Source: a virus
Lineage: Duplodnaviria > Caudoviricetes
IMG/VR virus record: IMGVR_UViG_2623620477_000001
Span: 10,075 to 74,074 of that record
Strand: one strand, 5' to 3'
DNA: 64,000 nucleotides
Shown: one piece after another, positions 1 through 62,280 of the stretch
Numbering within the stretch: the first letter of the stretch is position 1
Layout: each line of letters opens with the position of its first letter
Program-made: the position numbers and the translations under genes
The notes under the pieces: model-generated
Databases searched by the model: none
Told to the model about the DNA's origin: nothing
What the model saw: only the letters and a program-made list of their open reading frames with translations

Positions 1-3000
1 TTATTTGAAATTTAAGCCAAGCAACACAATCAATTGAATTAGAATGGAAAGGAACTGCAAAAGTCTTATCAGAAATAAAAGAATTGATGTCAATATTTAT
101 TGCACTGTCAAAAGGTGTTTTGTATACGTCAAGATGTATAATGCTTGCTGAATAATGCTCATCATTCCAATACTGCCAACTATTCCAAGTTACATCACTT
201 AGCGTTATTACACCAACAACAACTGCATATGTATCAGAATATACCTCATTTTCTTCTTCAAGAAGTTTACAATCTCCATAAATATATAATTTTCCAGAAT
301 CCCCAATAATTGTACATGGGTGAGTCATTTCACTTTCACTAAAGAATGCTTCTCTTCCATTAAAAACTGCATAATAACCACTCCAAGTAGTAGTTCCAGA
401 AGTAGATATTCTTATTATATATTGCATCGTTAAACTACTACTTCCAGAAACAAGAATATAAAAATATCCATCATAAGCCCCTACAGAATTTACTGTTAGA
501 TTGGAAAAGTCGTTTTCTAAGTCAATATCTGTTACAAAAACAGAAGATGGATTTAATATATTAACTACACATAGTTTATCTTGATTGTTACGAGCTAAAA
601 CATAATTATCAAGTTCAAATGGTAATGGGAAAGTTATTGACTGATTTAAACCTTGTAAAGTTTCTATTCTTTGAGTAGAAATGTTAAACAAAAGCCAAGT
701 AACTTCTGTTGACAAATCAAAGCCTATATACACTTTAGAAGAAGTTCCGTAAATTTTATGGAAATATAATTCTTCTGTATCGTGTAATTGGTATTCATCA
801 ACAACAGATTCATTTTTATAAACTTTGAGTTTTTTTGAAGAACCAATACTTACTCTATATACATCAGAAGAATTAGGAAGGCTAAAATAGTAAGCATGGC
901 TAAGTGTTTCAGAACTAATTGTTTTTGACTGTCCAGACTTATATGTTCCTTCCTCAACCATAATCGAGTTACCTTCGCTCGATGTTTGGAAGATTATGTT
1001 TTCATCTTCATCGTATACTGTAAAAGCGTTTCCGTTTACTGTAACATCACCTGTCGCACTTACTCGGAAATCGTTAATTACGAAGTCGATGTCATATTCT
1101 CCTGTCGGAACTCCGTTTTCAATTTGTGGTGTAACTTGAATATACTGATGTTCACCACCAACACGGAAAGAACCTTTTCTTAAGAGCGTGTGTTCATCTA
1201 TTACTGTATCATTTACAGCCCAATAGTTGTACTGGTCGCCTTGCATAGCACCGTCAGTAATATATCCAAGGTTTGCTGATAAGGCGGCGAGTTCTTCAAC
1301 GAAAATCTGCTGAACTCCTAATGCACCGTCTAAGCGGACTTTTTCTCCTTGATTATTAAGTTCCCAAGCCTTTACAACGTCTTGTGCAGAAGTTGCTCTT
1401 GCTTCAATGTAAGTAATAGAACTCCAAGAACTTTCAGCGAGAATTGTCTTTGCTTTAATGCGGTAAGCATAAAGAGTGTGAACACTTGCGTTTGGCTGTC
1501 CGTAAAGTGGTACGCTGAATGAAACGGTAGTTCCTGTTGCAACATTAAGTTTTTCACCTTCGTTTCCTTGCTTGTAGTTATCCAAACTTTCATAAGGATT
1601 CAAGCCAAGTGCAGGTGCATACCAAACCAATTCTGACGGATCTGTGATAGGTGTATAAACATTGTTCACTAATTTATACGCTTTTGCAACTTGTATGAGA
1701 ACTCCTTGACTTCCGTAGATATTATTCTGTTCTGTCCAACGAAGTGTAACACTTCTGCCCGAAGATGTGATATTCAATGTAGGAGTTGTCGGAGTGTAAC
1801 CAAGATAGCCTGTAACATCTGGGTGTACAACAGCACTGTCAGAATAGCCTGCTTCATTTTTCTCTCTTACTTTTATGCTAAGAGCCTGTACTGTTGCGGT
1901 AAGCATTGGCTGAATAGCATACTGATACGATTCGAGAGTTACATCTGATGCTACTAAAGTGTTATCTACATAAATATCGAAGAACTTAGTGCCGTAACTT
2001 TCTGTGTCTGCAACAAGAGGAATCTCAATATATTTTTCATAAGCCTTTGGAGCGATTACAGGAGTTGCAATCTCCCAAGTCTTATAATAAGTATCATCAA
2101 GAGTATAAGTATTCTGTGTCTGCGTATACGCTTCGGATGTTGCGGTTACAGAGAATATCCAATCATCTTCGATGTCATCAATCTCTGGATAGCCGTCATT
2201 TTCTCTATCGAAGTAATAGTAATATGTAAGACTGCGAGTTCCTGTAATTTTCTGTGTTCCGTTTACACTTGCGCTGAATGAAGGTGTTCCGTAGAAATCT
2301 CCACTTAAAGACCACTTCAATTCGATGTAATCTTCGAACGGAGTTGCTGTAAGTGTTGGAGCATTAAAGTGCCAAGTTTTATAATGAGTCTTATCATAAG
2401 TTGCATTTGCAGAAGTTGCAGACAATCCCGACTGATTAGACACAGTAACAGTAAAGTTCCAAGCACTTGTATCAAAATCGCTCTTTTCTGGATATTCGTT
2501 ATTCTCTCTGTTGAAATTATAACGATATGAGAATCCTCCAATGCCCTGTGCGATTACAACACCGTTTCTTTTTATTGTGTACAGATTTACACCGAATACA
2601 CTACTTGTATCACAACTCCAAGTGATATTGATATAATCTCTATACGGAGTTGCTGTAACATTTATCGGTGCGGTCGGTTGCCAAGTAAGATAGTGAGTAA
2701 GGTCGAGAGTAACATTTACCCAATCAGAATAATGTCCGTACACATTCATTGTTCTGATTCTTATTGACCAATTCGAGAGTTGAGAGGTTGTAGGATAACC
2801 GTCTGTGCTTCGGTCAAAAATATAATCATAGAATGTTTCAGAAGTTACAAAAGTCTGAACTACATTATTCGGTTTTGTTATTTCAACGAGGTAATTCTTT
2901 ACACTATCATTAAGAGTAGCACCGCCATTTTCCCATTTAACAGAGATTCCGCTTTCCTTTGCAACGGCAGTAGCATTTGACGGAGCAACTGGTGTAGCAG

Positions 3001-5659
3001 TTCCACCATTTTCGATTATTCCAATGGTTTCTCCAATGGCATTTGCAAGGTCTGATTGTGAAGCAGGAGTACTTACATCTCCGTAATTTATAGGAAGTCC
3101 GCTCTGATTTGGGAGAGTGGTTTTCGGATCAAAGTCGTCTACAACAATACTATCTGCATCATAAATCTGTTCATTATAAGGAATGAGCGTTAATTCATAA
3201 GTTCCGTCACCATTTTCTTTCTTTCCGAAACAGAGAGTTTCAATTGTTTCTGTTCCATAGAGTCCGAATGATAATACTGCTCCTTCTTCTATAATGCTAT
3301 TTGCAGTTTCAGCACTATCGAACATAAGTACATTGTGCTCTCCCGATGCAGAGAATCTAGCAAGTTTTTTCTTTATGATTACAGGTTCTCCGTTTGTGTT
3401 TACACCGTTTATTTGAACACCATAATTTTCGTTTACATGAGCAACTGTGAACTTTACATCGGTTTTAATACCTGTAATGAGGTTGTTATCGTTCTTGATA
3501 AGTTCTACAACTTCTCCACCCTCTCCGATACCAACGCTGATTATAGGGCTTTGAATTGTTATAAGACTACCAATTTCAGCAAGTGAACCTTCGGTAGTTA
3601 CCTTTGCTTGAAGGGTTTCTGGTCTTAATTTCTTACAAGCCTGCTGATATAAACTTAATGCCTTTGCGTGATATGGGTCTGAAATATATGGCATTTCTAC
3701 ATTCTCAAGAACATCAGAACTTGACAAGGCAGGACTTCCGTAAGGTTTTACTGCAATTGTATCTTGCTGATAATAATTCAACGCAGAAATGTACTTTACA
3801 CTCTGACCGTCTGGAAGTACATCAAAACTCTTTGTCAGTGTAAGCGATAACAAGTTGTTATTATTCAAAGTAAGCAGAGGTATAGACTGTGGCTTATCGG
3901 TATAAATACCGTACTTCTTTCCGTTGAGGATAATAAAACTCTTTGCGGTCTGTAAAATAGTGTTTACAAGGTCGATTGTTTTTGTACTATTTAATACAGC
4001 ACCGTCACAATAATGACGTTTATCGGAAATGCCTCCTGCAAATGTCCTTGTTTCTTCACAGAGTTCATACAGTTCTCCAAACTGCTGTAAGTCGATTTTG
4101 TTTGACTCCATATAATCAATACCTTCTGTGAGATTGTATCTGTATATAGGGTCTTTATAATCTCCTGTCATTACCATTAAAGAAAGTGATGCTGGGTTTC
4201 GTGTCGGCGCTAGAGTTTTGCTCCACCCTGTTCCATCGAATGTTCTTGCCTTTGAAGTAGCGACGAGATTTATTTTATCAAAATTACTCTGTAAATCATC
4301 AGTTACCTTAATAGAGAATCCAAGTCTTGCAGTCTTGTTTCTTTCTCTTTCATTCATAGGTGCTTGTCTTTCATAACTTGTTGATTGACCTTCCCAATCT
4401 GTTTTTGAATAATCATAGCACCAACTTCGAATTGCAGTAAAATAACACTTGTCTATTATCTGTGCAGAATCTGTAGTTGAAGGATTACAACGAGAGATTC
4501 TGAACTCGATTACCTTCGATTCACAAGTCTTTATATCACTCTTTGGGAACGCAATACGGTAAACATATCTTAAGGTTTTTGCCTTTTGGTTTTTGAATAC
4601 CATATATCCGTGTTCTTGGTCGTAGATACCTCTGTTTGTAGATTCTGACATCTTCCACTTCTGACCCACGTTATCACCTACAATCCAAGTGTTCCCGTTA
4701 TCAAGAGAATACTCGATTTTTACATCAACTTCTGCATCCTGTTTTTCACCCTTATCGTTATATCCGATAAGACCTGCAAAAGACACTTCGAGTTCTACTA
4801 TATTTGCATATCGGGCAGAGAACGCATAAACATAATTTGCATTTCCTTCTACATTCTTAAGTTCTGCATTAAAGTTCTCTTGTACAACTTTCTGATTATA
4901 CAAAGATACTTCGTTCGCTCCCTGCTGTATTTCAAGTTGAGTGTAACTTGATTTTTCTGGGTCTACTTCGCCTGTAACTGGATCAATGTATTCATAAGGA
5001 TATTTTTCTGATGTAATTTCAAGAGCACCGTTCTCAACATTTCCTATATTACTTGCAAGAACTTCGTTTCCTATACTTACATCTTTTATATCGAGGTTGT
5101 TATATCCGATTAAATACAGACAGTGATATATCATATTTTCACCGTCTTCTCCACTTATTGTTGTGTAAGGCTTTCCAATTACATAAGGAACAAAATAAGT
5201 CTTTCCTAAAATAAGAGGTATACACTTTCCTAAAGCACTCTGATTCTTCGAGCCTTGTATTGAAGGAAGATTTTCTATTTCTTCTTGATTGTTAGCAGTA
5301 TCTACATCTGGAGTAAGCCATTTTTTCAATCCTTCTTTAAGTAATTCAGCGAACCCCTTGCCTGTTACCATTCTAACAACAAGTTCACTAACACCAAGAA
5401 CAGCAACTCCAATAAGTGTAGCATAAATAAGCGAAGCAACAGAAATAGTTCCGACTGCACTTGGGTACTGTCTTATAACACAAGTATCACCGTCTTTAAG
5501 TTTATAGTCTTTTTCCTTGCGGATTCCGTTTACAAAGATTACAGAGTTTTCAAGATCAACGTCTGTAATTGCTTCACAAAGACAGAGAGGTGTGCTGATT
5601 TTTACGACTTCTGATTTAGGCTCAAATGGATTCTTAATTACTTCAACAATTGCTTGGCT
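1..5659 (-). CDS. Tail tip / host-specificity protein (lambda gpI+gpJ-like, FN3-like repeats), 3'-truncated by window edge; AGC start
   Basis: Missing from the ORF track. By hand translation the frame is open from AGC at 5659 to base 1 (>1880 codons): (M)QAIVEVIKNPFEPK...IFVNG...LKDGD...GSKNQSALGKCIPLILG...TRNPA..., with repeated 'FDR..DGYP...W' beta-sandwich units. Lies downstream of the NlpC/P60 gene. Confidence 0.88.
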
Positions 5660-6499: not shown

Positions 6500-6849
6500 A
6501 CTTCCTCCCAATCCATAGTACAAGTTATAAGTTTTCCACTTGTTTGAGAATACTGCGGTGCTCCGTCAGAAGTGAATCTGTATTCAGCATTTCCACTTCC
6601 GTCAATCTTAGGAAACTCAAAAGACAGAGTTCCGAACTTAATTGTATTCTTATACCAATAACTAAAATACAGATATTCGTCATAGGTAAAAATCATCGTT
6701 ACGCTAAAAGGTCTTTTGGCAAGGCTGTGAGCCATTCGTCTTTTTGTTTTACCACTTAATGTTTCATCAGAGATAAAACCTGTTATTTCAGACCAAGTTG
6801 TATCTCTTCTTGCCAACTGATTTACATGAGAATCCCAAGCCTGTGCCAT
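6496..6849 (-). CDS. Distal tail protein (gpM-like)
   Basis: SGKTKRR and WYKNTIKFG.LSF.FP motifs; directly after tape measure. Confidence 0.7.
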   Translation of the reverse strand: MAQAWDSHVNQLARRDTTWSEITGFISDETLSGKTKRRMAHSLAKRPFSVTMIFTYDEYLYFSYWYKNTIKFGTLSFEFPKIDGSGNAEYRFTSDGAPQYSQTSGKLITCTMDWEEV

Positions 6850-9800
6850 TATAACCTCCTACCGTCTACTCTCTGTTTCTGCATTGCAAAAGCGTTATCC
6901 CAACCATTAAAACCATTTGCAACATCACTCGCAATCTTCTTGCTGATTGTAATGAGCATTTCATTTACGCCATTATTATTTCTCTGCTGAACATCAACAT
7001 CGGTATTTGCATAGTTGTTTACCACAACTTTTACTGCACCTTTGCCGAGTCCTTCAGGATTCTTTGTTGCAATAATAGTATCTTCGGGATGAGTACTGAA
7101 ATTACCTTTTGGTGTAATTATCATATCATTTACAGGTGTTGCTCTTGATACATAATCTTTAAGAGTAAATGCGTTAATTTCAGATTTCTTCTTAAGATAA
7201 TACTCTTCCTGTTCCTTAATTGCCTTTGCAAGGTCTTTATACTGCTGATTAAGTTCTTTGAGAAGTTCAAGTTGTTTCTCTTGTTCATTTGCCTCTGATG
7301 ACCCCTCTGCAAGAGAACTTATAAATCCCGATGCAATACCACTTGCTCCACCAAGAGCAAATAAAGCGAGAGCGCCTGGCACTCCTGCCCAACCAGACTG
7401 TGCAATTAAGTTGACACCTGCTTGAATACAGGTAATTGCGAGGCTCTTTGTTATCTGTGAAACGAGTTGTGCAAACTGTTTCTTTAATGCGTCTCCTACG
7501 CTTGCTCCTTTTGCGAGAGCATCGCCGATTGCTGTAAATCCGTCTATCAAGGCATTTGGAATCTGTGTCTTTGCAATGTCCATAAGAGTACTTGCAAATA
7601 AATCAGCATTAGTTTTTGATATACCGATTTTCTCAAAGTATTCAGAAACCTGTCCTTCAAGATAACCCCAAATATCAGACTGTTTTTTCTTCTCATCAGT
7701 TAATTGCTTTTCCCAATAAAGAAGTGCTTCGGCTTGGTTTTCTGTGTACCCTTCCGACATAAGAGCCTTTATTTCAGCCTGTTTCTTTAACTCACCTGTC
7801 TGGTCTTTGAGGATTGCAAGTTCTTCTCTATATGATTCCAATTGAGCAATAGTAGCCTCTTGTTGTGCGCTATACTGCAAATCTTTCATCTTGTTTGTAG
7901 TACCCTCATCAGCACCCCACAATCCCGAATCACGCATAGCTTTGATTACAGAGTTTATCTTCTCAAGTTTCTGTTCTGCGAGATCCAATTTGCTTATATT
8001 GATAAGTCCTGCGTCAGAGAATGACTTCATATTTGTCATTTCCTTTTCAAGTTTTTCCTTGAATTTAGCAACAGCAGTAGCACCTTTTTCAATAGCACCA
8101 TCATATACTTCTTCGTTAGTGAATCCCATCGCATTTTGCAATACTTTCTGCCATTCAGAGAGATTTTCAAGCTTAATTTTAATCTTTACTTCTTTAAGTT
8201 GCTTATTGAGATATTCAATCGTCTTGTCAATTTCTGGCTTATTCTTTGCATAACTGATTACATTTCCATCATTATCAAATTGTCCATTGAGTTCTTTTAA
8301 TTTCTTCTCATAAGCCTGTACAGTTTTAACGTTATCTTCAAGAGCAATTTTCTCTTTTTCGTGTTTAGAGATAGTTCCATTAAACAATTCATCAACTTGG
8401 TCTTTAAGTTCGGTGATATTGAACTTCTCAACTTGAGATTCCCAAAATGAAACAACACGAGCCTGTTCTTCTATCGACCTATTTGTATGTGCAACGGCTT
8501 CTTGCCATTTATTTACTTCTTCTTGTGCTTTCTTTAATTTCTTTTCATATCCTGTAAGTCCGCCACCACCATCTTTTCTCATTTTTTCTTCAAGCAAACT
8601 TACATTCTTGTGTGCCTCTTGTAGTTTTTCATTAAAAGTAGCAAGATTGCTCTTATACCCATCAAGAATAGCAGTTTCATTTTGAAGATTCTGTTTGCGA
8701 TTATTCTTATTAACTCCAACATTCAGTAAGTTATAATCTGTTCCCATTGCCTTTTTTGCATCTTCTACAGCCTTCGCCATTTTTGCGGTTTCTTCTGCAG
8801 CCTCCGCAGTACTCTTTTTATAAGACTTTACAGCAACGGCTATTCCTGCAATTACACCTGCTCCAACAGCCAACGCTAAAGTTGCAGGGTTGAGAATTGC
8901 CTTAAGAACTACAGTTTTCTTTAACTCGGTATTTAATTTGATTATTGCACCAACAAGTCCAACTCCGATTACGGTTACAAGGGAAGAAATAACCGCAACA
9001 AGTCCACCTTGTAGAAGTGCTTTCATTACAGGATTGCTATTCCACTCAAGTAATTTATCAGAGAGGTTTCCTATCTTTTCTTTGAGGACATCGAGGATAG
9101 CCTTGTAAGCATCTGCAATTCCCGATACTTCGGCAAAGTTTACAGTCATTTCCTTAAAGTAGTCAGAAATGAACCCTTCCTTACCTTCGATAGTTTTATT
9201 GATGTTGTCCATAGCATTATAGAACTGACCTGCTTTTCCTGTGGTTTCATCTACGGCAGAAGTCATATTCTTAAATGCCTTGGTAATATCCTTTGCGGTG
9301 GCAGTTCCCGTAACGCCCATTTTCTTCAACATATCATAGATAGGAACGCCACGCATAGCCAACTGTTGCAACTGCATAGCAGATGCCTTTCCTGTACTGT
9401 TGATTTTAGAATAGATAGTTACGAGATCCGCGAACTTGTTTTTGTCTCCCTGTACAACGTTTCCGAGCATTACCAACTTATCTTTAATGGTGTCTACATC
9501 TACACCGACGTTAGCCATCTGTGTAAACGCACCTGTAAGTTCATCAACACCGAAAGTTGTTTCATTAGAGAGTTTTCGAAGTTCCTCGAACTTTGCTTTA
9601 CCTACATCTGCATCGTGGAAGAATGTAGTAAGACCCATTTCAAGTTCTTCGAAGTGTGAGAAGTTACCAATAGCGGTCTTAAACGCACTAGTCATTCCTT
9701 TAATAGTTGCAACAAGTGAAGTAACACCTGCAACTGCCGCGAGAGTAGACGGGCTAAGCGCCCTCATCGCATCATCAAGATTACCCGTAACCTTTTCAGA

Positions 9801-9899
9801 GTTACTTGCAGTCTTGTTGAACATATCTAAATCGCCTGTAGCCTTTACTACTCCCTTAGAATCTATCTCAAGAACTAATCTACTGATGTCATTTGCGCT
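6849..9899 (-). CDS. Tail tape measure protein, AGC start (1016 aa)
   Basis: Long Ala/Lys/Leu-rich coiled coil with tape-measure N domain (LSNETTFGVDEL...LQQLAMRGVPIYDML) and hydrophobic segments; extension to AGC restores a typical N-terminus (M)ANDISRLVLEIDSKGVVKATGDLD. Confidence 0.92.
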   Translation of the reverse strand, partial: SANDISRLVLEIDSKGVVKATGDLDMFNKTASNSEKVTGNLDDAMRALSPSTLAAVAGVTSLVATIKGMTSAFKTAIGNFSHFEELEMGLTTFFHDADVGKAKFEELRKLSNETTFGVDELTGAFTQMANVGVDVDTIKDKLVMLGNVVQGDKNKFADLVTIYSKINSTGKASAMQLQQLAMRGVPIYDMLKKMGVTGTATAKDITKAFKNMTSAVDETTGKAGQFYNAMDNINKTIEGKEGFISDYFKEMTVNFAEVSGIADAYKAILDVLKEKIGNLSDKLLEWNSNPVMKALLQGGLVAVISSLVTVIGVGLVGAIIKLNTELKKTVVLKAILNPATLALAVGAGVIAGIAVAVKSYKKSTAEAAEETAKMAKAVEDAKKAMGTDYNLLNVGVNKNNRKQNLQNETAILDGYKSNLATFNEKLQEAHKNVSLLEEKMRKDGGGGLTGYEKKLKKAQEEVNKWQEAVAHTNRSIEEQARVVSFWESQVEKFNITELKDQVDELFNGTISKHEKEKIALEDNVKTVQAYEKKLKELNGQFDNDGNVISYAKNKPEIDKTIEYLNKQLKEVKIKIKLENLSEWQKVLQNAMGFTNEEVYDGAIEKGATAVAKFKEKLEKEMTNMKSFSDAGLINISKLDLAEQKLEKINSVIKAMRDSGLWGADEGTTNKMKDLQYSAQQEATIAQLESYREELAILKDQTGELKKQAEIKALMSEGYTENQAEALLYWEKQLTDEKKKQSDIWGYLEGQVSEYFEKIGISKTNADLFASTLMDIAKTQIPNALIDGFTAIGDALAKGASVGDALKKQFAQLVSQITKSLAITCIQAGVNLIAQSGWAGVPGALALFALGGASGIASGFISSLAEGSSEANEQEKQLELLKELNQQYKDLAKAIKEQEEYYLKKKSEINAFTLKDYVSRATPVNDMIITPKGNFSTHPEDTIIATKNPEGLGKGAVKVVVNNYANTDVDVQQRNNNGVNEMLITISKKIASDVANGFNGWDNAFAMQKQRVDGRRL

Positions 9900-10324
9900 T
9901 TGGCTTCCTCCTCAACACGAATGTCTTCTTCGGCTTCATCTTCCATTTGCTTGATTTTTGCGTCCGCCCAATTGTTACACTTCAAGATGAAGTCTATTTC
10001 TATCTGCCTAAACTTTATATTCCTAATTATAGCATACGAGTTAATATCTGTCCAAGTCATTACTTCGTGACAATGGTTGTATATCTCAAGAAACGAATTA
10101 TATATGAACAAAAAATAAACAGGAACATTTGGCTCTCTCAAGTAATCGAAGTCACTAGATTCGTCAAAACATTCCTGTCCTATATCTCGTATTAAGTCGT
10201 TTCTATCTTCCGCATTGGTTCTAAAAACAGTTCTATTACTCGCTGTTCGATGTGCTGTCGGATAATGTAGGAAGAAAAACTGCTCAATTGCCTCTTTTAG
10301 TTCTCCTTCCCTTCCGATAAAAAA
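9875..10324 (-). CDS. Tail assembly chaperone, -1 frameshift extension (gpGT C-terminal part)
   Basis: The -1 frame is open from the slippery site: FIGREGELKEAIEQFFFLHYP...MTWTDINSYA...IDFIL; sits between chaperone and tape measure genes. Confidence 0.8.
   Translation of the reverse strand, partial: FFIGREGELKEAIEQFFFLHYPTAHRTASNRTVFRTNAEDRNDLIRDIGQECFDESSDFDYLREPNVPVYFLFIYNSFLEIYNHCHEVMTWTDINSYAIIRNIKFRQIEIDFILKCNNWADAKIKQMEDEAEEDIRVEEEAKAQMTSVD
9897..9913 (-). promoter_or_regulatory. RBS + AGC start of tape measure gene
   Basis: GAGGAGG-aagccaa-AGC GCA AAT GAC; in-frame TGA 5 codons upstream. Confidence 0.85.
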
Positions 10325-10819: not shown

Positions 10820-11035
10820 TTATTTCTTTTCAAGTTTTTTCTGCTCACCGTCTGGAATAAAGCGAGCACAAATACCAAGTACAGCACCACCAAGAATGGT
10901 TACTGAACCTGCAATTGCTGTTGATGTCTTTGGGTCAAGTTTTCCTGTTACTCCAAGATAAGCAAAGATACCGTCAGAGATAACTTCAAGACCTGTTACA
11001 ATTGCTGTAATCAAATCAAATACATTCTTTGTCAT
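10820..11035 (-). CDS. Small two-TM membrane protein, possible holin
   Basis: 71 aa, two hydrophobic helices, basic C-terminus, AGGAGG RBS. Confidence 0.55.
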   Translation of the reverse strand: MTKNVFDLITAIVTGLEVISDGIFAYLGVTGKLDPKTSTAIAGSVTILGGAVLGICARFIPDGEQKKLEKK

Positions 11036-11132
11036 TTTAATCTCCTCCTAAAATGAGATTCTGTCTGTCCAATGCCAACCGTCTTTCCGATTTGCCATTA
11101 TGAGTTTTATATGACCAGAACCTTGTGGTTCT

Positions 11133-11199
11133 ATGGAAGTTCTCGGACTTAGCACCGAGCATCGAGGATAGAGAGCCTCGACTACACTATGCACTTCCA
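11133..11199 (-). ncRNA. D-armless tRNA-like structure
   Basis: 7-bp acceptor-like stem TGGAAGT/ACTTCCA; 6-bp stem TCGAGG/CCTCGA with loop CTCTCTAT; 5-bp stem CTCGG/CCGAG with loop TGCTAAGT. Confidence 0.4.
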
Positions 11200-11225
11200 C
11201 CTACAGAACTTGAAAACTGTAGAAA

Positions 11226-11298
11226 TAGCGGAGGAGGGATTCGAACCCCCGACATTGTGGCAAGCGCCCACCTAAGCTACCAACTGCTTCACTCCGCG
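11226..11298 (-). tRNA. Initiator-type (tRNA-fMet-like) tRNA with anticodon GCU (reads AGC)
   Basis: CGCGGAG TG AAGC AGTTGGTA GCTT A GGTGG GC-GCT-TG CCACA ATGTC GGGGG TTCGAAT CCCTC CTCCGCT A (73 nt). C1xU72 mismatch, G2-C71, C3-G70, A11-U24, A73, short variable loop; anticodon at 11265-11263; CCA not encoded. Confidence 0.9.
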
Positions 11299-11417
11299 AT
11301 GTAGGAGAGTTTTTATATAGACTGCACTCACAAAAGCCATTCGGTTTAATCAGCCGATAGATTCGACATATCAAACTTGCTACGACCCATTCGGATTTTC
11401 ACAAATCAAGTCTTAGA

Positions 11418-11441
11418 AACGGCTCATTAAGGCGAGCCGTT
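11418..11441 (-). terminator. Hairpin after tail tube gene (weak terminator or processing/stability stem)
   Basis: Plus-strand AACGGCTC-N8-GAGCCGTT inverted repeat; poor U tract. Confidence 0.45.
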
Positions 11442-11447
11442 CAACCT

Positions 11448-12704
11448 TTATTCAATAGTTACTGTACAACTCTGGTTTGCACTTGCTGTTGTACTTCCTG
11501 TAGCAGAAGCATTTGTATTTGTAGCAACAACCTTGTAAACACCGCTTTCTGTTGCTGTGTAAGTAGCATCGTCTGCTTCGCTGATTGCAACATTATCCTT
11601 GTACCACTGATAACTGATTGTTCCACCGTCTGTTACTGTTGCAGTACCGTCAAGTGTTACTGATGTTTCATCAGTAGTATCTTCCAACTCATTTGTGAAA
11701 GTTGGTGTTTCAGCATCTACTGGTGTTTCAGCAGTCACAACGTCTTTCTCAAGTTTCAAGTCAGTAGCACTGTTTACCTTGAATGGAACAGAGAACTGCA
11801 ATTTGTTTCCGTTCTTGCTTTCTGTTGGAGCACCAAGGTGAACGTTCAAAGTAAGTGTGTAAGAGTAAGTTATTTCTCCAACTGTTCTTTCTACCTTTAC
11901 CTGTAATACCTTGTCCTTTCCGTCTACTGCATCGTTGTAAATCTCATGTCCGAGTTCATCAACGTTATAAACATCGAATGTTCCTTCAATTACGAAGTCT
12001 CCAAGAGAGTTCTCAATTGATTCTTCTTCAAACAGAGCAGGTGTTCTTTCGAGGTTGTTGTTGATTGTGATATTCATACTTGGTGACTGACGAACAGCCA
12101 CAAGTGATGATGTAGTATCACCGTATTTCAACCAACCTTTCTTTGTAAGGAATGATTTTCCTGTATTTGCACTTCCATAAGTAACAGTTCTGTTATCATA
12201 AGAAGTAGGCTCGGAAAATACTTTCTTAGGGTTATTAGAACCCATAAGATTCCAAGTCAGTTTTACAAAGGCATCAGTCGCAAAGTCCATTGTGAGTTGG
12301 TTTACATACATTTTTGTGTACATCTGCCAAGCAAGCGGTGTCTGTGGATATTTCTTAACCATTAAGAAAGCCTTTACAGCATCACCAAGAGTAAGTGAAC
12401 TTTTTCCGTTGTTTGGTGTTGTCCAATCGTTACAGAAAGCACCCGCGAACAAATCATCCTGTTCACCGTCTACATTCCATTCTGTTCCAATATCACCAGC
12501 ATTTGATTCTGTGCCGACTTCTGGGGTTGAAGGAATACGTGAATCAGGCAGAATAATATCTGATGCGATTTCTTCCGATGTTCCTGCAACCGAATTGTCT
12601 GATACACGTCTTGGAGTAAGTGCAATTGCACCACTTCCCGAAGTAATCAAACCAAGATAGGTTGTAAAATAAGTCTTAATTTTGTTTGTAATAGCGTTAC
12701 TGCT
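11448..12704 (-). CDS. Major tail tube protein with C-terminal Ig-like domain, AGC start (418 aa)
   Basis: Tube-type sequence (SEEIASD...GDIGTEW...ITINNNLE) plus ISYQWYKDNVAISEADDATYTA..GVYKVVATN Ig domain; (M)SNAITNKIK N-terminus from AGC. Confidence 0.88.
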   Translation of the reverse strand, partial: SSNAITNKIKTYFTTYLGLITSGSGAIALTPRRVSDNSVAGTSEEIASDIILPDSRIPSTPEVGTESNAGDIGTEWNVDGEQDDLFAGAFCNDWTTPNNGKSSLTLGDAVKAFLMVKKYPQTPLAWQMYTKMYVNQLTMDFATDAFVKLTWNLMGSNNPKKVFSEPTSYDNRTVTYGSANTGKSFLTKKGWLKYGDTTSSLVAVRQSPSMNITINNNLERTPALFEEESIENSLGDFVIEGTFDVYNVDELGHEIYNDAVDGKDKVLQVKVERTVGEITYSYTLTLNVHLGAPTESKNGNKLQFSVPFKVNSATDLKLEKDVVTAETPVDAETPTFTNELEDTTDETSVTLDGTATVTDGGTISYQWYKDNVAISEADDATYTATESGVYKVVATNTNASATGSTTASANQSCTVTIE

Positions 12705-15307: not shown

Positions 15308-16447
15308 CTAGCCGAGAAGTGCGATAGAGTTCTCTGGCTTAATATTCTTGAATCCCCAAGCAGTACCGATTGTAACGGTTGTCTGATATGGAGCACCCCA
15401 AACAGCAAGTTCGTATGGAATACCTGTAAGTGGGTCTGTGATAATTGCACGGTCAAGTGCATTATCTCCCTTACTTGGTACGAATGGAACACGGCTTGCC
15501 ATAATGATAGAACCACGAGAGAATACGCTGTTTGGAGCGTAATTCTGTACAGTGATTGCAGCATCATTAGCAACGTCTGCTTTAAGAGCAGTCTGCAGTT
15601 TAAGAGTTGTTCCACCTGTAGCAACATCTTCTGCAACAGCATAGAGAGTTGTGTCAGAACCGAACTTAACAAGGTCACCCTTCTTGAATGTACCTTCACC
15701 TGTGTCCATTGTAACCTGTGTTGCACCTTCTGATGCTCCACCGTTTACAAGGTAGCCACTTGCAGTACCCTTTGCGTGACGCATACCTGCTGATTCGCGG
15801 ATTGTGAATCCGAACAAATCACCAAGAATACCACGGCGGAGAAGGTCTCCTGTACCTGCTTCATTAACCTTCTGCAAGTGTTCAATATTGCGGAGGTTAC
15901 GACCAGATGTTGTATTAAGGATAGCCTGTAATTCTCCAAGAGGAGCACCAACATCTTCGAGGTTCTTAAGAGCATCTGTAAGAATGCTTGTGTTTGATGC
16001 AAATGGATTTGTACCAATTGTACCAAGTACACTTCCCTCGTTTACAGCAGAGATAACTGCCTCTTCACAAGCGTCTGCTTCCATTTCATTACGAAGTCCG
16101 CGGATTCTCTGTGCATACTGTTCAACCTGAATTGGGTCAAGCATACCAGAACCACTAACGCCAGCCTCGCCTTCTCCTGTCCAAACGATAGGCTTACCAC
16201 GACGGATCTTCTGGATTGTTACACCTACTGTCTCGATTGTATCGAGGTCTGCTGTAGGAGTTACACCTTCTCTGATATCCTCGTTATCTCCCATAGGAGT
16301 AATTGGGATTTCAACCATCTGTCCTTTCTTAACAGAACTTGCCTTTGCACTGATGATAGTTGCAGGAATCATACCGATTGGCTCTGCATTTACCTTATTC
16401 AATGCTTCATAAAATACTGGAATTACCGAGTCTAATTCGTGTGCGCT
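15308..16447 (-). CDS. Major capsid protein (P22 coat-like), AGC start (379 aa)
   Basis: KGQMVEIP, LLRRGILGDLFGFTIRES, ITDPLTGIPYE, AWGFKNIKPENSIALLG; extension to AGC gives (M)AHELDSVIPVFYEALNKV, a family-like N-terminus; follows scaffold gene. Confidence 0.92.
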   Translation of the reverse strand, partial: SAHELDSVIPVFYEALNKVNAEPIGMIPATIISAKASSVKKGQMVEIPITPMGDNEDIREGVTPTADLDTIETVGVTIQKIRRGKPIVWTGEGEAGVSGSGMLDPIQVEQYAQRIRGLRNEMEADACEEAVISAVNEGSVLGTIGTNPFASNTSILTDALKNLEDVGAPLGELQAILNTTSGRNLRNIEHLQKVNEAGTGDLLRRGILGDLFGFTIRESAGMRHAKGTASGYLVNGGASEGATQVTMDTGEGTFKKGDLVKFGSDTTLYAVAEDVATGGTTLKLQTALKADVANDAAITVQNYAPNSVFSRGSIIMASRVPFVPSKGDNALDRAIITDPLTGIPYELAVWGAPYQTTVTIGTAWGFKNIKPENSIALLG

Positions 16448-18387: not shown

Positions 18388-18585
18388 CTATAGTGGATTC
18401 CAAGTCTTACTCTGACCGTGGAATACATACAAATCGCCTGTGTCCAAAACAAAAGCAGAACTTCCTGCACTGCAATCTGTTGGCAACTTTGATATATCTG
18501 CACTATACAACTGGAAGTTTTCTTGGCTATTTCCACTTCCGCCTACCGATTCAATTGAGCCTAAATCAACACCGTTTCGTATGCT
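18388..18585 (-). CDS. Hidden 65-aa protein with AGC start
   Basis: GGAGGT-agccca-AGC; (M)IRNGVDLGSIESVGGSGNSQENFQLYSADISKLPTDCSAGSSAFVLDTGDLYVFHGQSKTWNPL; its stop overlaps the RBS of the next gene; no ATG in frame. Confidence 0.8.
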   Translation of the reverse strand, partial: SIRNGVDLGSIESVGGSGNSQENFQLYSADISKLPTDCSAGSSAFVLDTGDLYVFHGQSKTWNPL

Positions 18586-21306: not shown

Positions 21307-22231
21307 ATTTACTCCTTTTTGGAAACTTCTTCCCTAATACTTCGTAGATTACTGAATAAACGCTGAAATCTGTTTTTGAATTATCATTCAGTACAGTCTC
21401 TCTGTAACCCTCATTTATCAAAACCTTTACTATCATAGGAAGGTCTTGTTTTGTCGTAGCACAATATCTGTGCCTGTATTTTGAATCTGTCTTACAAACT
21501 CCTGCGCCCATAGCACAGAATGAAAACAGATATTGATTAAAGTTCTTGTATTCTCTGAAACTAGATACTGATTCAAGTATTTCATCTTTGTATCTTTCAT
21601 ATACAGAGTTACAAAAACTCTTAATCATTGGCGCGGAGATATGTGGTACTTGTGGGTACTCCGTATCTCCTATCAACCTAAAACATCTGCTCGGATAATG
21701 TTTCCTCGCAAACTCATAACTGTTACGTGCTATCTGAAAGTAATGTTCCTTACGCTGTTTTGGAGAACCAATATTGATTATCTCCAACTTGTTCTTTGCT
21801 TTTACTGAACCGTCATAATCTTCATAGAAGAAGTCATCTGGCGTCAGCACTCCGTTCGGCAAAAAGTCATCATTCGAGTAAATGTAATACTCGGATAAAT
21901 CCTTAATCAGATGCACGAACATTTCTATTGCACAAGAGTTGAACGTAGGCAAAAATTCCTTTGGAATGAACTCCTTATGTTCAACTACTGTAACAGTTTC
22001 TGTATTCATCCATTCGGGTACTTGGGTCTTATCGTGTACAATGATAAATACCTTTCGTACCCACGGCATATATCGTTCAGTAGCACGAAGTTTATAACGA
22101 AGTAATTCACCGTCAGCATAATAACGTTGCTTATCATCGTTATAAACTCGTCCTGTGGCTTTCTGCCAATCAGTCTGCCACTGTTCCTTTCTGCAATCCA
22201 CATAAGGAAACACAACATCGATGCGATTCAT
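21296..22231 (-). CDS. Stealth-family hexose-1-phosphate transferase
   Basis: CR1 IDVVFPYVD; CR2 ELLRYKLR..ERYMPWV...LPTFNSCAIE...YSNDDF; CR3 H...PM..S; C-terminal FPKRSKYE. Confidence 0.9.
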   Translation of the reverse strand: MNRIDVVFPYVDCRKEQWQTDWQKATGRVYNDDKQRYYADGELLRYKLRATERYMPWVRKVFIIVHDKTQVPEWMNTETVTVVEHKEFIPKEFLPTFNSCAIEMFVHLIKDLSEYYIYSNDDFLPNGVLTPDDFFYEDYDGSVKAKNKLEIINIGSPKQRKEHYFQIARNSYEFARKHYPSRCFRLIGDTEYPQVPHISAPMIKSFCNSVYERYKDEILESVSSFREYKNFNQYLFSFCAMGAGVCKTDSKYRHRYCATTKQDLPMIVKVLINEGYRETVLNDNSKTDFSVYSVIYEVLGKKFPKRSKYEL

Positions 22232-23649
22232 TACTCATCCTCATTTGGAATTGGAATCCTACTCTTCTGTTCCTCATCAATTTCTGCCTGTTCTTCCTCG
22301 AATGTCTTATCAGATGCAATAATCTCACCTTCTTGGAGATTTCTGAACATAGTCTTCTTAGAGATTGCTCCCTGTTGCCAAGCAGCGACATACTGTGCAA
22401 GGTCACTTGCAGAGAGTGCAGAAACATCGTAGTCTGTATTGAATATTACTTGGTGTTTATCTTCTGGAACTTCCTTGCTAGATGACCATTCAAGATAAAT
22501 CTTCAATAACTTGGTGAATACGATTGAGAAGTTGTTCGCAATATCAGCAAGGATAGAGTTCTCACCTGCTCTGTGGATTCGTGCAGTTTCTGCAGATTCT
22601 ACTCCTTTACGCTCCTGTGAGATAATCCTTGCTCCAAGGATAGCCATACGCTCTTCATCAGCGTTCATTGCATTTGCCAACTGATTACATCCGCTACCGC
22701 TGAACTCAAGATATTGCATACTTGCACCTGCTGGAAGATTTTGAACAACTGAACCACCAAGTTTAAGAGGTTCTGAAGCAACTTCTACTCCATTTACCAA
22801 TACAGTTGGAACATCTGCTCCCTGTGTCCAAGGTGTAGGAACGCCTGTCCAATGCAAACCATTTTCGTAGTCTGCTGACTTGCGATAGTGAGAAAGGTTT
22901 ACGTTGATTAAGTCCTCAAGAATAGGCTCTTGTGGATAATCTGATGTTGATAGGAAATAGAATGGGATGTAATTGAATCTCTTACCTTTGATTTTTGGCT
23001 CTACTTTGTCGATTACTACATCTCTGTCATTGTAGAGAATCTGTACATAGTAGCCGTTCTCGTCAATCTTGCATACACGGTAATTGTTCCTCTGTTCAAG
23101 GGTAAAATCTGCCTTTACAACCTCTGTTTTCTCTCGGAAGATAACAAAGTCAAGATACTGCTTTCTACCGTCACTAGCCCAATGCCAATTGATGATGGAC
23201 TCTGCCTTGTAATAGGTCATATACGCAGAAAGATTTGCATCCTCAAAATCTTTCTGACTTCTTACATTCTCCATTTTTGGCATATCAACTAATACACCAC
23301 CCCATGCAGTAGTAAGAAAGTCCTTTACTGTTTCAGAACAGAACTGATTAAGTGAGTGACCTTTTCCGTCTACGTTTTCAAGATACTTTTCAAATCCGTC
23401 TGGAATCTGTGTGATGATAGGCTTACGGTTTATCATACCGCTTAAGCCATCAAGTGTTCTTCCTGTTGCGTTGAAGAACTGCGCCCTCATTATGTAAGCA
23501 TTGTAGTCAGCATCATCCATTCCCGATGCTCTTGGAAGATAACGTTCCTTGCGATACTTGATGTAAGTTTCACCACCAACTGCATCGCGACATTTCTCCC
23601 ACTTCTTAATGAACTTCATATAAGAACTACAACAATTCTGAATACTGCT
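22231..23649 (-). CDS. Portal protein (DUF4055-type), AGC start (472 aa)
   Basis: W..CRDA.GGE..IK...YLP, RA.FFNATGRT, NLSHYR.SADYE.GLH, AWQQGAIS; follows TerL. Confidence 0.92.
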   Translation of the reverse strand, partial: SSIQNCCSSYMKFIKKWEKCRDAVGGETYIKYRKERYLPRASGMDDADYNAYIMRAQFFNATGRTLDGLSGMINRKPIITQIPDGFEKYLENVDGKGHSLNQFCSETVKDFLTTAWGGVLVDMPKMENVRSQKDFEDANLSAYMTYYKAESIINWHWASDGRKQYLDFVIFREKTEVVKADFTLEQRNNYRVCKIDENGYYVQILYNDRDVVIDKVEPKIKGKRFNYIPFYFLSTSDYPQEPILEDLINVNLSHYRKSADYENGLHWTGVPTPWTQGADVPTVLVNGVEVASEPLKLGGSVVQNLPAGASMQYLEFSGSGCNQLANAMNADEERMAILGARIISQERKGVESAETARIHRAGENSILADIANNFSIVFTKLLKIYLEWSSSKEVPEDKHQVIFNTDYDVSALSASDLAQYVAAWQQGAISKKTMFRNLQEGEIIASDKTFEEEQAEIDEEQKSRIPIPNEDE

Positions 23650-25333: not shown

Positions 25334-25951
25334 TTATACACTCTTCTCAAGTTTCTCAATTGTTCTGTCCAAGCGTCCTTGGTTCAGTTCATTACCATAG
25401 AATGACAGTCCGTGTTCAATTGCATATCTTGCGGTATATCCTAAACCACAGCAAGGGTCAGTGATTGTCATACCTTCCTTTGCGAATGGTTCAAGTGCTT
25501 CCAATAGAGACTTGTAACCTTTTGTGTGATATACCTTCTGACGATAGTCGAATGTAAGATTGAGATTACCTGTCTTAGAGAATACGTTGAGTATCATAGG
25601 TCTTGCGGGCGAGCCGTACATCATTTCGATTTGAGCCTCCTGTTTAAGACCGTGACACATAGCAATCTCTACCAACTGCTGATTCCACTTAATTCCGTAT
25701 TCTACGAAGATTGGTGCGTCATCTTTAGTATACTTTACTGCGACATCGAAGAATCTCTGTAAGAACTTAAGAAGGTCTGTTTTCTTCTTTTCTGCGCCCG
25801 TCATCTTGTTATTCAAAGTCTGCCAAAACTCAAGATTTCCCCAAGGTGGATCTGAATAAAAGATGTCTATTTTCTTATCACCATAGAGTTCATCGAGGTT
25901 ATCGAATATATCTCCACATCTTACCTTATGGCGTCCTATTTCCTTAATCAT
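25334..25951 (-). CDS. N6A/N4C DNA methyltransferase-like protein
   Basis: YSDPPW motif IV and DPCCGLG motif I, GNELN. Confidence 0.8.
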   Translation of the reverse strand: MIKEIGRHKVRCGDIFDNLDELYGDKKIDIFYSDPPWGNLEFWQTLNNKMTGAEKKKTDLLKFLQRFFDVAVKYTKDDAPIFVEYGIKWNQQLVEIAMCHGLKQEAQIEMMYGSPARPMILNVFSKTGNLNLTFDYRQKVYHTKGYKSLLEALEPFAKEGMTITDPCCGLGYTARYAIEHGLSFYGNELNQGRLDRTIEKLEKSV

Positions 25952-26543
25952 TTTGTGCCTCCACATCATCAATAAAAAACTTACTCTGCCTGTTTGTTGG
26001 TCGTGGACCGAGAGTAGATTTGAAATCCAAATGCTGTACCAAGAACGGTACTTGCATCCAATATTTGAGTTTCATTTTACCAAGAACGTAGCCAATATAA
26101 GTATCAGAAGGATATGTCCATACTGAATACTTAGTTTTATACCATTCACGGAATTGTGCAACATTTTCTGGCTTGATAATTTCATCACATACTGCCTTTG
26201 GGAAGTAATTGCACTGATTCCATTGATAACGGCTTCCTGCGCGATATTCTGAATGCAGTGCAGTGCGTGAACAAGCTGATTCGAACATAGAGATTACTTC
26301 ATTCGGGCGAGATGCAATAAGTTCTTCACAGCGTGTCTGAAAGTTCTTACACAACTGTACGTCATCTTCGAGTAATACTACTCCGTCAGCATCAGTTTTG
26401 AAGATGTTTACAAAACGCTCAAACAACCCTTCTCTGCCACTCATAATAACATTCAGCGGAGGCAACTGTGATTTCATAATAGCCACATTGTCGATTCTCT
26501 GCTGATTGTTTTCAGTACATAATACTTTATATTCGATATTCAT
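25944..26543 (-). CDS. Glycosyltransferase-like protein (GT25-like)
   Basis: VLLEDDV.LC..F and P.LVQH motifs. Confidence 0.65.
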   Translation of the reverse strand: MNIEYKVLCTENNQQRIDNVAIMKSQLPPLNVIMSGREGLFERFVNIFKTDADGVVLLEDDVQLCKNFQTRCEELIASRPNEVISMFESACSRTALHSEYRAGSRYQWNQCNYFPKAVCDEIIKPENVAQFREWYKTKYSVWTYPSDTYIGYVLGKMKLKYWMQVPFLVQHLDFKSTLGPRPTNRQSKFFIDDVEAQND

Positions 26544-26545
26544 AC

Positions 26546-27229
26546 TTACTTCCTTCCTGTCCACTTGTATTCATCTGTGTTCTCATAGATTTCGCCATAG
26601 TGCTTTTCCTCTTGGATCTGTTTTTCTGTTTTCCAAGACTGTCCGTACTGTGCTTTTTCGAAGAGTTTTGCAAAGCCTGTTACATACTTAAGTTTTACAA
26701 TCTCCTCTTTCTCCATTCCAAGTTCTTTACAGATATCTGCGTCAGACCATCCATTCTGTAACATATTGAATACAAGGTTACTCATACCTGTTACGGCGTG
26801 GCTTCCTCTTGCTCTATTATGGCGGACTGTGGCAGCCATACGTTCGTTCATTGTTTTATTGAGAACTACGATAGGCAAACAACCGTGATTGCGCTCGAGG
26901 ATGTCCTTCTGTGTTTTACAAACGAAATAGCGGTGGAATCCGTCAACAATTACATACTTATCCTTTTCTTTATCGTATACGGTAACTACTGGCTGTGTAT
27001 ACCCATCTTCTTTAATTGAGATATACAATAACTGCATTTCCTTCTTTGCAACAGAGTTAGGATTGTAGTCATTTGGAGTTACCTTTTCGATTGGCACCCA
27101 TATTACGTTATCAATAGGCTGTGATTTGTATTCTGACAGTTCAGCACAAACCTTGCGGATCTCGTTGATTACGGCAACCTTGTCCTTACTTCCATTTACA
27201 AGTTTAGTAATATCATCTTTTACACTCAT
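26546..27229 (-). CDS. ibrB: ParB/sulfiredoxin-domain protein, IbrB-like
   Basis: NDYNPNSVA, SIKEDGYTQPVV, IVDGFHR, RMAATVRHNRARGSH. Confidence 0.88.
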   Translation of the reverse strand: MSVKDDITKLVNGSKDKVAVINEIRKVCAELSEYKSQPIDNVIWVPIEKVTPNDYNPNSVAKKEMQLLYISIKEDGYTQPVVTVYDKEKDKYVIVDGFHRYFVCKTQKDILERNHGCLPIVVLNKTMNERMAATVRHNRARGSHAVTGMSNLVFNMLQNGWSDADICKELGMEKEEIVKLKYVTGFAKLFEKAQYGQSWKTEKQIQEEKHYGEIYENTDEYKWTGRK

Positions 27230-27231
27230 TC

Positions 27232-28365
27232 TTATTCTCCTTTCTTATTTTCGTTTATGATTACCTTATGTTTTTCACGCAACCAAGCACGATACTTAGG
27301 GTTTGTATAAACATTCTCAATTGTTGTGAAATAGTAATCATCAAGAAGTATGCACTTTACGAAAGTCTGTGCAAAACCGTCAATCTCTGGGTGTCCTTCA
27401 AAATCAAGCATAAGTTTAAGGTACTTGTTTCTGAAAGCAAGTCGATGTTCTTCTTTTACGAGGTGGTCGATAAGATAAAGTACATATTCATTCCAACCAC
27501 TGAACATAGAAGGATAAGTTTCGGGAACACATCGTGCGATAGAACAGTGTTTTTCAGTGTTTACTCCGTGAAGTCTTTCTACTGCCTTGTTCCAAGTGTC
27601 AGGCTCAAGTTCCTGTAAATACGAAAGCGATTTAAGTGCGGTTTCGTGGTTGAGGTTAGAAACACGCATTTTTGGCATCGGTACACCTTTTGCATACATA
27701 AAATTATAGATTCCGTTATAGTCGCACTTGTTGTCAAAAATAAACTTCCAAATATCTCGGTAAGACCAATCGTACAGAGGATAGAACGTTACTTTTGCAC
27801 AGTTCTCTTCCCACTTGTCGATATGTCCATATGTGATGTCTTTCCAACATCTGCGTGATGTACAAGCCAATACACGCTTTGGAGTTTCTTCTCCGCGGAC
27901 ACCACCGATATTGGCACAGTCTTTACCCTCAAACATTTTTGCTTGTACAGCACCAAATATTTCGTGGAATCGCATAGTACCAAAGGTATTTTCCTTAATA
28001 GCACAAGGCTCTTTTTCACGCATCCATTTTCCGCCCTCTTCCCAACACCAAAGCCATTCAGAATCGTGACTTGTAGCATTGAAGATTTTCATAGGCATCT
28101 GCAACCAAATAGGCTCTACTTCTGGTCTGCTCATAACACGACGGACATAATCTACGGTGTGTTGCCACTCGATTTCCTGGTCTATGAACAGTACTTTGAG
28201 AGGAAGTCTGTTTCTCTGTCTTGCTACGGCAAGGCACAATTCGAGAACTACAGTTGAATCCTTTCCGCCAGAAAACGATACAACAATATTTTCGAAATCA
28301 TCGAAGATTCTATTGATGCGTTTAATGGCAGCGTCAAAAACGTTCTCTTCCATATAGATTTTCAT
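27232..28365 (-). CDS. ibrA: PAPS-reductase-family PP-loop protein, IbrA-like
   Basis: SFSGGKDS, FIDQE, YPLYDW...DIW, MRVS motifs; adjacent to IbrB-like gene. Confidence 0.88.
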   Translation of the reverse strand: MKIYMEENVFDAAIKRINRIFDDFENIVVSFSGGKDSTVVLELCLAVARQRNRLPLKVLFIDQEIEWQHTVDYVRRVMSRPEVEPIWLQMPMKIFNATSHDSEWLWCWEEGGKWMREKEPCAIKENTFGTMRFHEIFGAVQAKMFEGKDCANIGGVRGEETPKRVLACTSRRCWKDITYGHIDKWEENCAKVTFYPLYDWSYRDIWKFIFDNKCDYNGIYNFMYAKGVPMPKMRVSNLNHETALKSLSYLQELEPDTWNKAVERLHGVNTEKHCSIARCVPETYPSMFSGWNEYVLYLIDHLVKEEHRLAFRNKYLKLMLDFEGHPEIDGFAQTFVKCILLDDYYFTTIENVYTNPKYRAWLREKHKVIINENKKGE

Positions 28366-57179: not shown

Positions 57180-57243
57180 CTGCGACAGCAGGATTCGAAC
57201 CTGCGGAATAAAAGACGTTGCCTTACCGCTTGGCTATGTCGCA
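57180..57243 (-). tRNA. tRNA-Gln-like pseudo-tRNA lacking an anticodon arm
   Basis: TGCGACA TA GCC AAGCGGTAA GGC A [ACGTCTTTTATTCC] GCAGG TTCGAAT CCTGC TGTCGCA G: perfect acceptor, D and T arms, collapsed anticodon region. Confidence 0.7.
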
Positions 57244-62127: not shown

Positions 62128-62280
62128 AACACTTTACAAATGCAATTAACAATTGCTTACTCTTTGAGAATAAAATAAGATTTAATATTTGTAAAGTGTT
62201 TTATTAACAATTACTAAATATTTTTTGCTTTTTTGCCGATAATGTGTATAATACTTACTCGGTGGGCGGAAGGAGCATTT

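Follow-up and report, generated by a model that had tools for sequence, protein, structure and literature searches.

An initiator-type phage tRNA with anticodon GCU and the proposed start of virion genes at AGC

Phages are known to alter the reading of their own late genes: in stop-codon recoding, suppressor tRNAs encoded by the phage serve the late genes. There, as in the system that we propose below, a phage tRNA changes how late structural genes are read and ties their expression to the phage programme. Stop-codon recoding, however, acts on stop codons in the course of elongation, whereas the AGC system would act on the start codon, at initiation.

Initiation at codons other than AUG has been obtained by engineering. 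According to the available text of PMC11744186 and of two preprints (bioRxiv 10.1101/2021.05.25.445580 and 10.1101/2024.07.29.605542), engineered initiator tRNAs with mutated anticodons start translation at the matching non-AUG codons. The amber initiator, i-tRNA(AAC) and the in vitro panel of PMC11744186 follow, as far as the available text describes them, the same logic as the tRNA considered here, in that an initiator body with a changed anticodon gives an orthogonal start. These systems were made in the laboratory, whereas the phage family is natural, is widespread in uncultured phages and is paired with matching start codons of its own. Engineered systems are all that a search of the main full texts of the literature returned; it found no natural initiator tRNA with an anticodon other than CAU, and no phage genes starting at AGG or AGC.

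The DNA analysed here, referred to as the window, is a stretch of 64,000 nucleotides from a 74-kb record, which is classed as a provirus and is 91% complete. We argue that the best reading of one tRNA gene in this window, with a probability of about 0.8 judging from sequence comparison, is that its product serves the phage as an initiator tRNA for translation from AGC.

The tRNA and its resemblance to initiators

The tRNA gene was delimited from the sequence and from the Rfam alignment.

11226 to 11298, minus strand: initiator-type tRNA with anticodon GCU, a 73-nt cloverleaf

The acceptor stem (CGCGGAG/CUCCGCU) leaves C1 opposite U72 and holds the pairs G2-C71, C3-G70 and G4-C69 next to the discriminator A73. 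The unpaired 1-72 position, these three pairs and A73 are shared with bacterial tRNA-fMet, including its phage copies (the tRNA(CAU) genes of L258, L259, L025 and L027), and they are the five acceptor-end determinants of the formyltransferase given in the available text of PMC9976931, all of which are found in the window tRNA. The D stem (AAGC/GCUU) has A11-U24, that is, a purine at 11 facing a pyrimidine at 24. In the anticodon stem (GGUGG/CCACA), G27 is mismatched with A43 and U29-A41 is followed by G30-C40 and G31-C39, so that two of the three G-C pairs of initiators (29-41, 30-40 and 31-39) are present; this triple varies across the family. A11-U24, G30-C40 and G31-C39 are again shared with tRNA-fMet, and the compact 71-nt body of the phage tRNA(CAU) genes is common to the family.

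The tRNA differs from tRNA-fMet in its anticodon, which is GCU (CCU in relatives) and not the CAU that reads AUG, GUG and UUG, in having C33 and U37, in its incomplete G-C triple and in the absence of an encoded CCA, the gene being followed by TTTC. Its anticodon loop is GCGCUUG, with GCU at positions 34-36, where the norm is U33 and a purine at 37. The variable loop has 5 nt, and in the D loop, AGUUGGUA, a U follows G18-G19.

The sequence-only reading of this locus had listed the 1-72 mismatch, the 2-71 and 3-70 pairs, A73 and A11-U24, as well as the GCU anticodon, G27xA43, U29-A41, the two remaining G-C pairs, the short variable loop and the missing CCA; every one of these features is borne out by the sequence and the Rfam alignment. 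C33 and U37 stood outside that list. It had also predicted that a scanner would report a tRNA-Ser(GCT). That is what ARAGORN does with the near-identical copy of L016, which it labels tRNA-Ser(gct), but the window copy is not called: ARAGORN reports no tRNA across the 64 kb. The Rfam model RF00005 gives the window tRNA a modest 38.2 bits, where the gathering score is 29. Folding at minimum energy yields the cloverleaf, with an energy (-25.4 kcal/mol) that is not better than that of shuffled sequences (z -0.42), so that the structure has to be judged from the covariation in relatives.

Phages often carry tRNAs for rare codons, and the gene could be read as an ordinary elongator that supplements codon usage, a tRNA-Ser(GCU) here and a tRNA-Arg(CCU) in the relatives. 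Phage elongators of these two kinds have the same anticodon triplets and are given the same names by annotators; ARAGORN does call the relatives tRNA-Arg(cct), next to the tRNA-Ser(gct) of L016, and a second tRNA, with anticodon CAT, adjoins the gene in 46 of 78 loci. The window tRNA departs from such elongators, however, by its unpaired 1-72, its lack of A20, its short variable loop, A73 instead of G73, U37 and the missing CCA. The available text of PMC9976931 gives the long variable arm and G73 as the identity elements for serine, and A20 in the D loop, together with C35 and U or G at 36, as the main bacterial determinant for arginine. C35 and U36 are present here, but the long arm is not, A73 replaces G73, and A20 is absent from the window tRNA and from every family member examined. 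Position 1-72 is paired and A37 is present in all nine other phage tRNA-Arg(CCT) genes of the examined loci, eight of which also have an A after G18-G19, whereas 1-72 is unpaired in 26 of the 27 distinct family sequences, U37 is found in most members and C33 in the GCU copies. Codon supply was rejected as an explanation of the tRNA, since AGG usage, at 1.1 to 26 per 1000 codons, shows no relation to the tRNA or to its loop type, and AGY usage is flat and likewise unrelated to the loop. An elongator would also leave unexplained the AGC and AGG gene heads described below, and we consider this alternative the least probable of those discussed here.

Relatives of the tRNA and its genomic setting

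The tail modules of relatives were retrieved with a tail protein query from IMG/VR, one genome collection and one metagenome collection, and the tRNA lies in the same place on every piece that extends past the tail gene. The case for a tRNA beyond chance rests on the covariation among these relatives: in nine syntenic tRNAs, 94.2% of the cells are paired and 11 of 21 pairs have changed on both sides, a level reached by none of 500 shuffles. Position 1-72 is unpaired in all nine, and G2-C71 and C3-G70 are invariant. Pair 11-24 is U11-A24 in the nine closest relatives, and the A11-U24 of the window is thus not conserved among them; the abundant relatives of the L181 type have A11-U24.

Seven distinct syntenic tRNAs have the anticodon CCU, in loops such as CUCCUUU, and are named tRNA-Arg by ARAGORN. 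The window-type loop recurs in two relatives, as GCGCUUG in L016 and as ACGCUUG in L026, the latter in a different stem background, and the anticodon GCU was found only in the window, L016 and L026. C35-U36 is kept in all syntenic copies. The possibility that the loop CUCCUUU is an anti-Shine-Dalgarno mimic, which masks ribosome binding sites, was dropped because the GCU copies have lost the motif and because the match to start codons explains the loop.

L016, which comes from a record titled as a Treponemataceae metagenome-assembled genome, has a tail protein 76% identical to that of the window. The acceptor stems of the two tRNAs are identical, and so are positions 28-42 of the anticodon arm, while compensatory double changes are found in the D stem (11-24 and 13-22) and in the T stem (49-65). 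These changes show that the tRNA with the variant loop is not in decay, its structure having been maintained.

The long ORFs of the window are nearly all on the minus strand (plus-strand ORFs lie at 62233-62901 and 63068-64000). In the direction of transcription they follow a siphovirus order: terminase, portal, head morphogenesis, scaffold, capsid, connectors, tail terminator, tail tube, the gap with the tRNA, a small ORF, the chaperones G/GT, tape measure and central fibre. The tail tube gene, whose product of about 400 amino acids has an Ig-like end, is identified by its position; its PHROG family, phrog_290, is labelled 'minor tail protein'. The intergenic gap that contains the tRNA lies within the late operon and is 412 nt long. 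Since a scan of 10900-11600 detected neither a promoter nor a terminator, the tRNA is probably excised from the late transcript. Nucleotide-level conservation with L001 and L016 extends over a hairpin just after the stop codon of the tail tube gene (11400-11447, minus strand) and over several blocks of the gap; downstream of the tRNA, the window has about 100 extra nucleotides with several short hairpins.

Regarding expression, seven sequencing runs were located, three of them recorded as RNA and none with half of the query words; the four runs that were aligned were in the form of contigs. One RNA contig of 165 nt covers only the small ORF at 10826-10990, and no contig covers the tRNA; these data are uninformative on its expression either way.

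The setting also lends itself to another explanation, in which the element does not decode: it would be a processing site for RNase P and RNase Z that splits the tail tube message from the downstream genes, or a decaying tRNA(CCU) pseudogene. A gap of 412 nt in a late operon, with no promoter- or terminator-like site, would suit a processing site, position 33 of the loop is not U and position 37 is not a purine, the window copy goes uncalled by ARAGORN, and the window holds another tRNA-like element that has no anticodon arm. Against this, the phage's own genes have start codons that go with the anticodon, C35-U36 is conserved in all syntenic copies, the CCU tRNA occupies different positions of the late operon across the wider family, and the compensatory stem changes that followed the split of the window and L016 oppose decay. 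We find a non-decoding element quite improbable, although processing could be an additional role of the tRNA.

The element without an anticodon arm, at 57180-57243 on the minus strand, scores 46.4 bits with the Rfam tRNA model and has 7 nt in place of the 15-nt core of the anticodon arm. A weak match to tRNA-Sec follows at 57306-57378 on the same strand (22.4 bits, an acceptor stem of 8 bp and the loop GUGUACA). Both lie between the SSB gene and PcfK/PcfJ-like genes, and both are missed by ARAGORN.

The tail chaperone gene contains, close to its end, a -1 slippery heptamer, T TTT TTA (10318-10324, minus strand), and the T frame is open in the -1 register; all nine related loci have conserved T TTT TTN. 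The idea that the tRNA tunes the G/GT chaperone frameshift by way of a hungry AGG or AGY codon was rejected, as no such codon tracks the site in nine loci.

Beyond the syntenic relatives, the family was searched with a pattern of fixed spacing that leaves positions 1, 72, 33, 34 and 37 free; it fixes G2, C3, G5, G30, C35, U36, C40, C68, G70, C71 and A73, which are thus invariant by construction. The search returned 85 IMG/VR stretches with 27 distinct sequences. Position 1-72, left free, is C-U in 16 of them, C-A in 7, and A-C, C-C and A-A in one each, the single paired case being U-A; the anticodon is CCU in 26, the exception being L026. In other phage groups, the CCU tRNA is found elsewhere in the late operon, either before the terminase gene or between the MuF-like and scaffold genes. 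The tRNA(CAT) that adjoins many of these genes is of the elongator type (Met or Ile2), with a paired 1-72; it shares the strand of the CCU tRNA and precedes it by 7-680 nt, for example in L179 and in L181 to L184 (3143-3217 in L181).

When positions 35 and 36 were freed as well, the 80 stretches listed, out of 83, added two new loci only. Both encode a tRNA(CAU) with the same compact body, the 1x72 mismatch and an encoded CCA, and are ordinary phage initiator tRNAs; this resemblance suggests that the CCU/GCU family is an offshoot of initiator tRNAs. A scan for further copies with C33-G34 gave three stretches, and only L026 belongs to the family, L257 being no tRNA at all and L256 a 3' fragment of one. 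The pattern in its 71-nt form has no match in the 401 genomes of the phylum of G001. In the INPHARED collection of cultured phages, the intergenic region has no match, and the tRNA queries matched only the T arm or a neighbouring tRNA-Met. The covariance model R1 separates the family poorly, the window copy (52.7 bits) falling amid generic tRNAs, because the loci searched had been chosen for having the same D arm.

AGC and AGG at the heads of virion genes

In five large virion genes of the window, a Shine-Dalgarno box is followed, after 6-7 nt, by AGC and then by conserved N-terminal residues, so that the matching codon stands, as with tRNA-fMet, at the spacing expected from the Shine-Dalgarno box. 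The five genes, and two shorter ORFs with similar heads, are the following.

22231 to 23649, minus strand: portal gene, 472 codons; proposed AGC start at 23649-23647, 6 nt after AGGAGG
15308 to 16447, minus strand: major capsid gene (phrog_283), 379 codons; proposed AGC start at 16447-16445, 6 nt after AAGGAG
11448 to 12704, minus strand: tail tube (major tail) gene (phrog_290), 418 codons; proposed AGC start at 12704-12702, 6 nt after AAGGAG (12716-12711)
6849 to 9899, minus strand: tape measure gene (phrog_9959), 1016 codons; proposed AGC start at 9899-9897, 7 nt after GGAGG
2 to 5659, minus strand: J-like central tail fibre gene (phrog_31), at least 1886 codons, running off the window; proposed AGC start at 5659-5657, 7 nt after GAGGGG
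18388 to 18585, minus strand: candidate ORF of 65 codons, with GGAGG, 7 nt, then AGC; no PHROG match
45896 to 46129, minus strand: weak candidate ORF of 77 codons, with GGAG, 5 nt, then AGC; no PHROG match

None of the five genes has a canonical start that could be used in place of AGC. Among the candidates listed for the five genes, none of the first canonical starts is preceded by a Shine-Dalgarno box. In the alignments of four heads with their relatives (capsid, tail tube, tape measure and central fibre), the first canonical start falls inside conserved protein sequence: 15 codons past AGC and within a conserved block in the capsid gene, at TTG 12650, 18 codons into the conserved N-terminus, in the tail tube gene, and 25 codons past AGC in the tape measure gene. 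In the central fibre gene, AGC aligns with the ATG of the L024 homologue, and the first ATG of the window gene comes 96 codons later. The first ATG of the portal gene, 10 codons past AGC, has no Shine-Dalgarno box, and residues 8-469 of the portal match positions 15-474 of the phrog_145 profile. The terminase, connector and chaperone genes keep ATG, and the proposed private start is limited to large virion genes.

The codon at the same place in related phages follows the anticodon of their tRNA. For the tail tube gene, it is AGC in the window and L016, AGG in L001, L019, L020, L004, L023/24 and L028, and also in L002, L003 and L021, whose tRNA region is off the contig; L017 and L026 have a Shine-Dalgarno box, ATG and the conserved N-terminus. 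The tape measure gene has a Shine-Dalgarno box, AGC and GCA in the window and L016, and a Shine-Dalgarno box, AGG and GCN in L019, L001, L017, L024 and L028, where AGG often comes straight after a TGA or TAA codon. At the capsid gene, the window, L016 and L026 show AGC, and L019, L028 and L004/L032 show AGG. Counted over the capsid, tail tube and tape measure genes present on the available sequence pieces, the three GCU phages have 7 AGC, no AGG and one ATG, and the seven CCU phages (L001, L004/L032, L017, L019, L020, L023/24 and L028) have no AGC, 14 AGG and two canonical starts.

Such heads could belong to fusions with the upstream gene or be reached by readthrough. In-frame stops are found 0-4 codons upstream of the AGC and AGG heads (for the tail tube gene of the window, TAG at 12710-12708, two codons upstream of AGC); TAA, TAG and TGA all occur, and the offset from the frame of the upstream gene is not constant (3, 4 or 10 nt), which excludes readthrough or fusion.

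Another group of CCU phages gives a further example. In 15 loci, the conserved N-terminus of a MuF-like head gene is encoded from AGG, and in the 14 loci where the upstream sequence is visible this codon comes directly after TAA or TGA, 7 nt past a Shine-Dalgarno box; in L218, the N-terminal peptide of the MuF-like gene is internal.

L180, L185, L190, L193, L200, L204, L212, L214, L219, L228, L238, L239, L246 and L254: loci with an AGG head of the MuF-like gene

As a control, we counted unique heads led by a Shine-Dalgarno box in ORFs of 200 codons or more, placed no further than 12 codons from where the ORF opens and with no canonical start within 8 codons, together with canonical heads led by a Shine-Dalgarno box.

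GCU phages (91 kb): AGC 8, AGG 0, canonical heads 16
CCU tail-module phages (53 kb): AGC 1, AGG 9, canonical heads 2
Other CCU phages (712 kb): AGC 0, AGG 15 (candidate heads), canonical heads 33
Unrelated phage loci (1.05 Mb): AGC 0, AGG 0, canonical heads 42

The single AGC head counted for the CCU tail-module phages is part of the spacer that belongs to an AGG start, and in the unrelated loci no other single codon exceeds 4.

Bacteria tolerate some non-AUG starts, and the stops close upstream of the heads are like those of coupled phage genes. It might therefore be supposed that the host fMet-tRNA reads AGC and AGG as near-cognate starts, or reaches them by translational coupling, the match to the phage anticodon being a coincidence. 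Compared with AUG, however, AGC has two changed positions and AGG a changed middle position, and the genes concerned encode the most abundant virion proteins. The 1.05 Mb of unrelated phage loci contain no such head, and orthologous genes have no AGC in CCU phages and no AGG in GCU phages. Reading by the host initiator is, in our view, highly improbable.

What supports the use of the window tRNA at start codons, within these sequence comparisons, is the match between anticodon and start codon. As the GCU state occurs in three phages and in two stem backgrounds, the AGC side of this covariation represents few independent events. The core of the sequence-only reading, that the GCU tRNA is of the initiator type rather than a serine elongator, is supported by the acceptor determinants, the short variable loop and the AGC/AGG gene heads.

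In most of the contexts from the window and related loci, an A stands just before the AGC or AGG start. Together with U37 of the tRNA, this A would make a fourth base pair possible, which we mention as a lead only; quadruplet pairing by the E. coli initiator is, by its title, the subject of PMC10018350.

Proposed mechanism, charging and significance

We propose, a little more cautiously than for the window tRNA itself but still as a probable interpretation, that these phages have a natural orthogonal initiation system, in which initiator tRNAs with altered anticodons (CCU in some 80 IMG/VR stretches, and GCU in three phages, those of the window, L016 and L026) would define private AGG or AGC starts of virion genes. 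Late protein synthesis would then need a phage RNA, and the start would have switched at least once, from AGG to AGC, along with the anticodon and across at least five genes.

In this scheme, the initiator anticodon would have changed from CAU to CCU, as in most relatives, and then to GCU. RNase P and RNase Z would release the tRNA from the late transcript, CCA would be added, and a host synthetase would charge it, with Arg or Met as the candidate amino acids. The host Fmt would formylate it and EF-Tu would reject it; an unpaired 1-72 should keep a tRNA off EF-Tu. The GCU tRNA would then pair, in the ribosomal P site, with an AGC located 6-7 nt downstream of a strong Shine-Dalgarno box, so that synthesis of the portal, capsid, tail tube, tape measure and fibre proteins would depend on a tRNA from the phage's own late operon.

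Regarding the charging enzyme, Pfam searches of 30 window ORFs, the larger ones, detected no synthetase, Fmt, deformylase or initiation-factor domain. Arginine is favoured by C35, U36, A73, G2-C71 and C3-G70, against which stands the missing A20. For the CCU relatives, Met is possible, since the E. coli MetRS, as the available text of PMC9976931 has it, mischarges tRNA-Arg(CCU) through its anticodon. Charging with serine, with no long arm, is unlikely. In the reconstituted E. coli system of PMC11744186, again from the available text, the CCU initiator was poor and a change of C to G at position 34 tended to cause misfolding; the natural tRNAs may therefore carry compensating features, such as U37.

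A cluster at 25334-29782 on the minus strand encodes a DNA methylase, two ParB-N-like proteins, a PAPS reductase with DUF3440 and a SAM methyltransferase. For the SAM methyltransferase there is a weak match to TRM5/TYW2 that falls below the cut-off (E 0.002). DNA or RNA modification is the probable function of the cluster.

As to its purpose, the system may be a translational gate or threshold on virion proteins, which would sharpen the switch to virion production; it may also keep virion proteins silent in lysogens, and make the phage independent of the host pool of initiator tRNA.

Systems of this kind would be easily overlooked. Gene callers truncate or miss genes headed by AGC or AGG, and tRNA scanners say Arg or Ser; truncated gene calls and these tRNA names make the system invisible in the annotations of many gut and rumen phages.

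If our reading is correct, the phages offer a natural precedent for the orthogonal initiation systems of engineers, and a natural system in which to test which amino acids and which tRNA features support bacterial initiation, an old question. Capsid, portal and tail proteins are among the proteins that certain bacterial defences sense, and a gate or threshold on the synthesis of these very proteins would be a new layer of phage gene control. The identity of the start codon would then not be fixed by the host: the virus would bring its own initiator tRNA, and begin its main genes at a codon of no use to the host.
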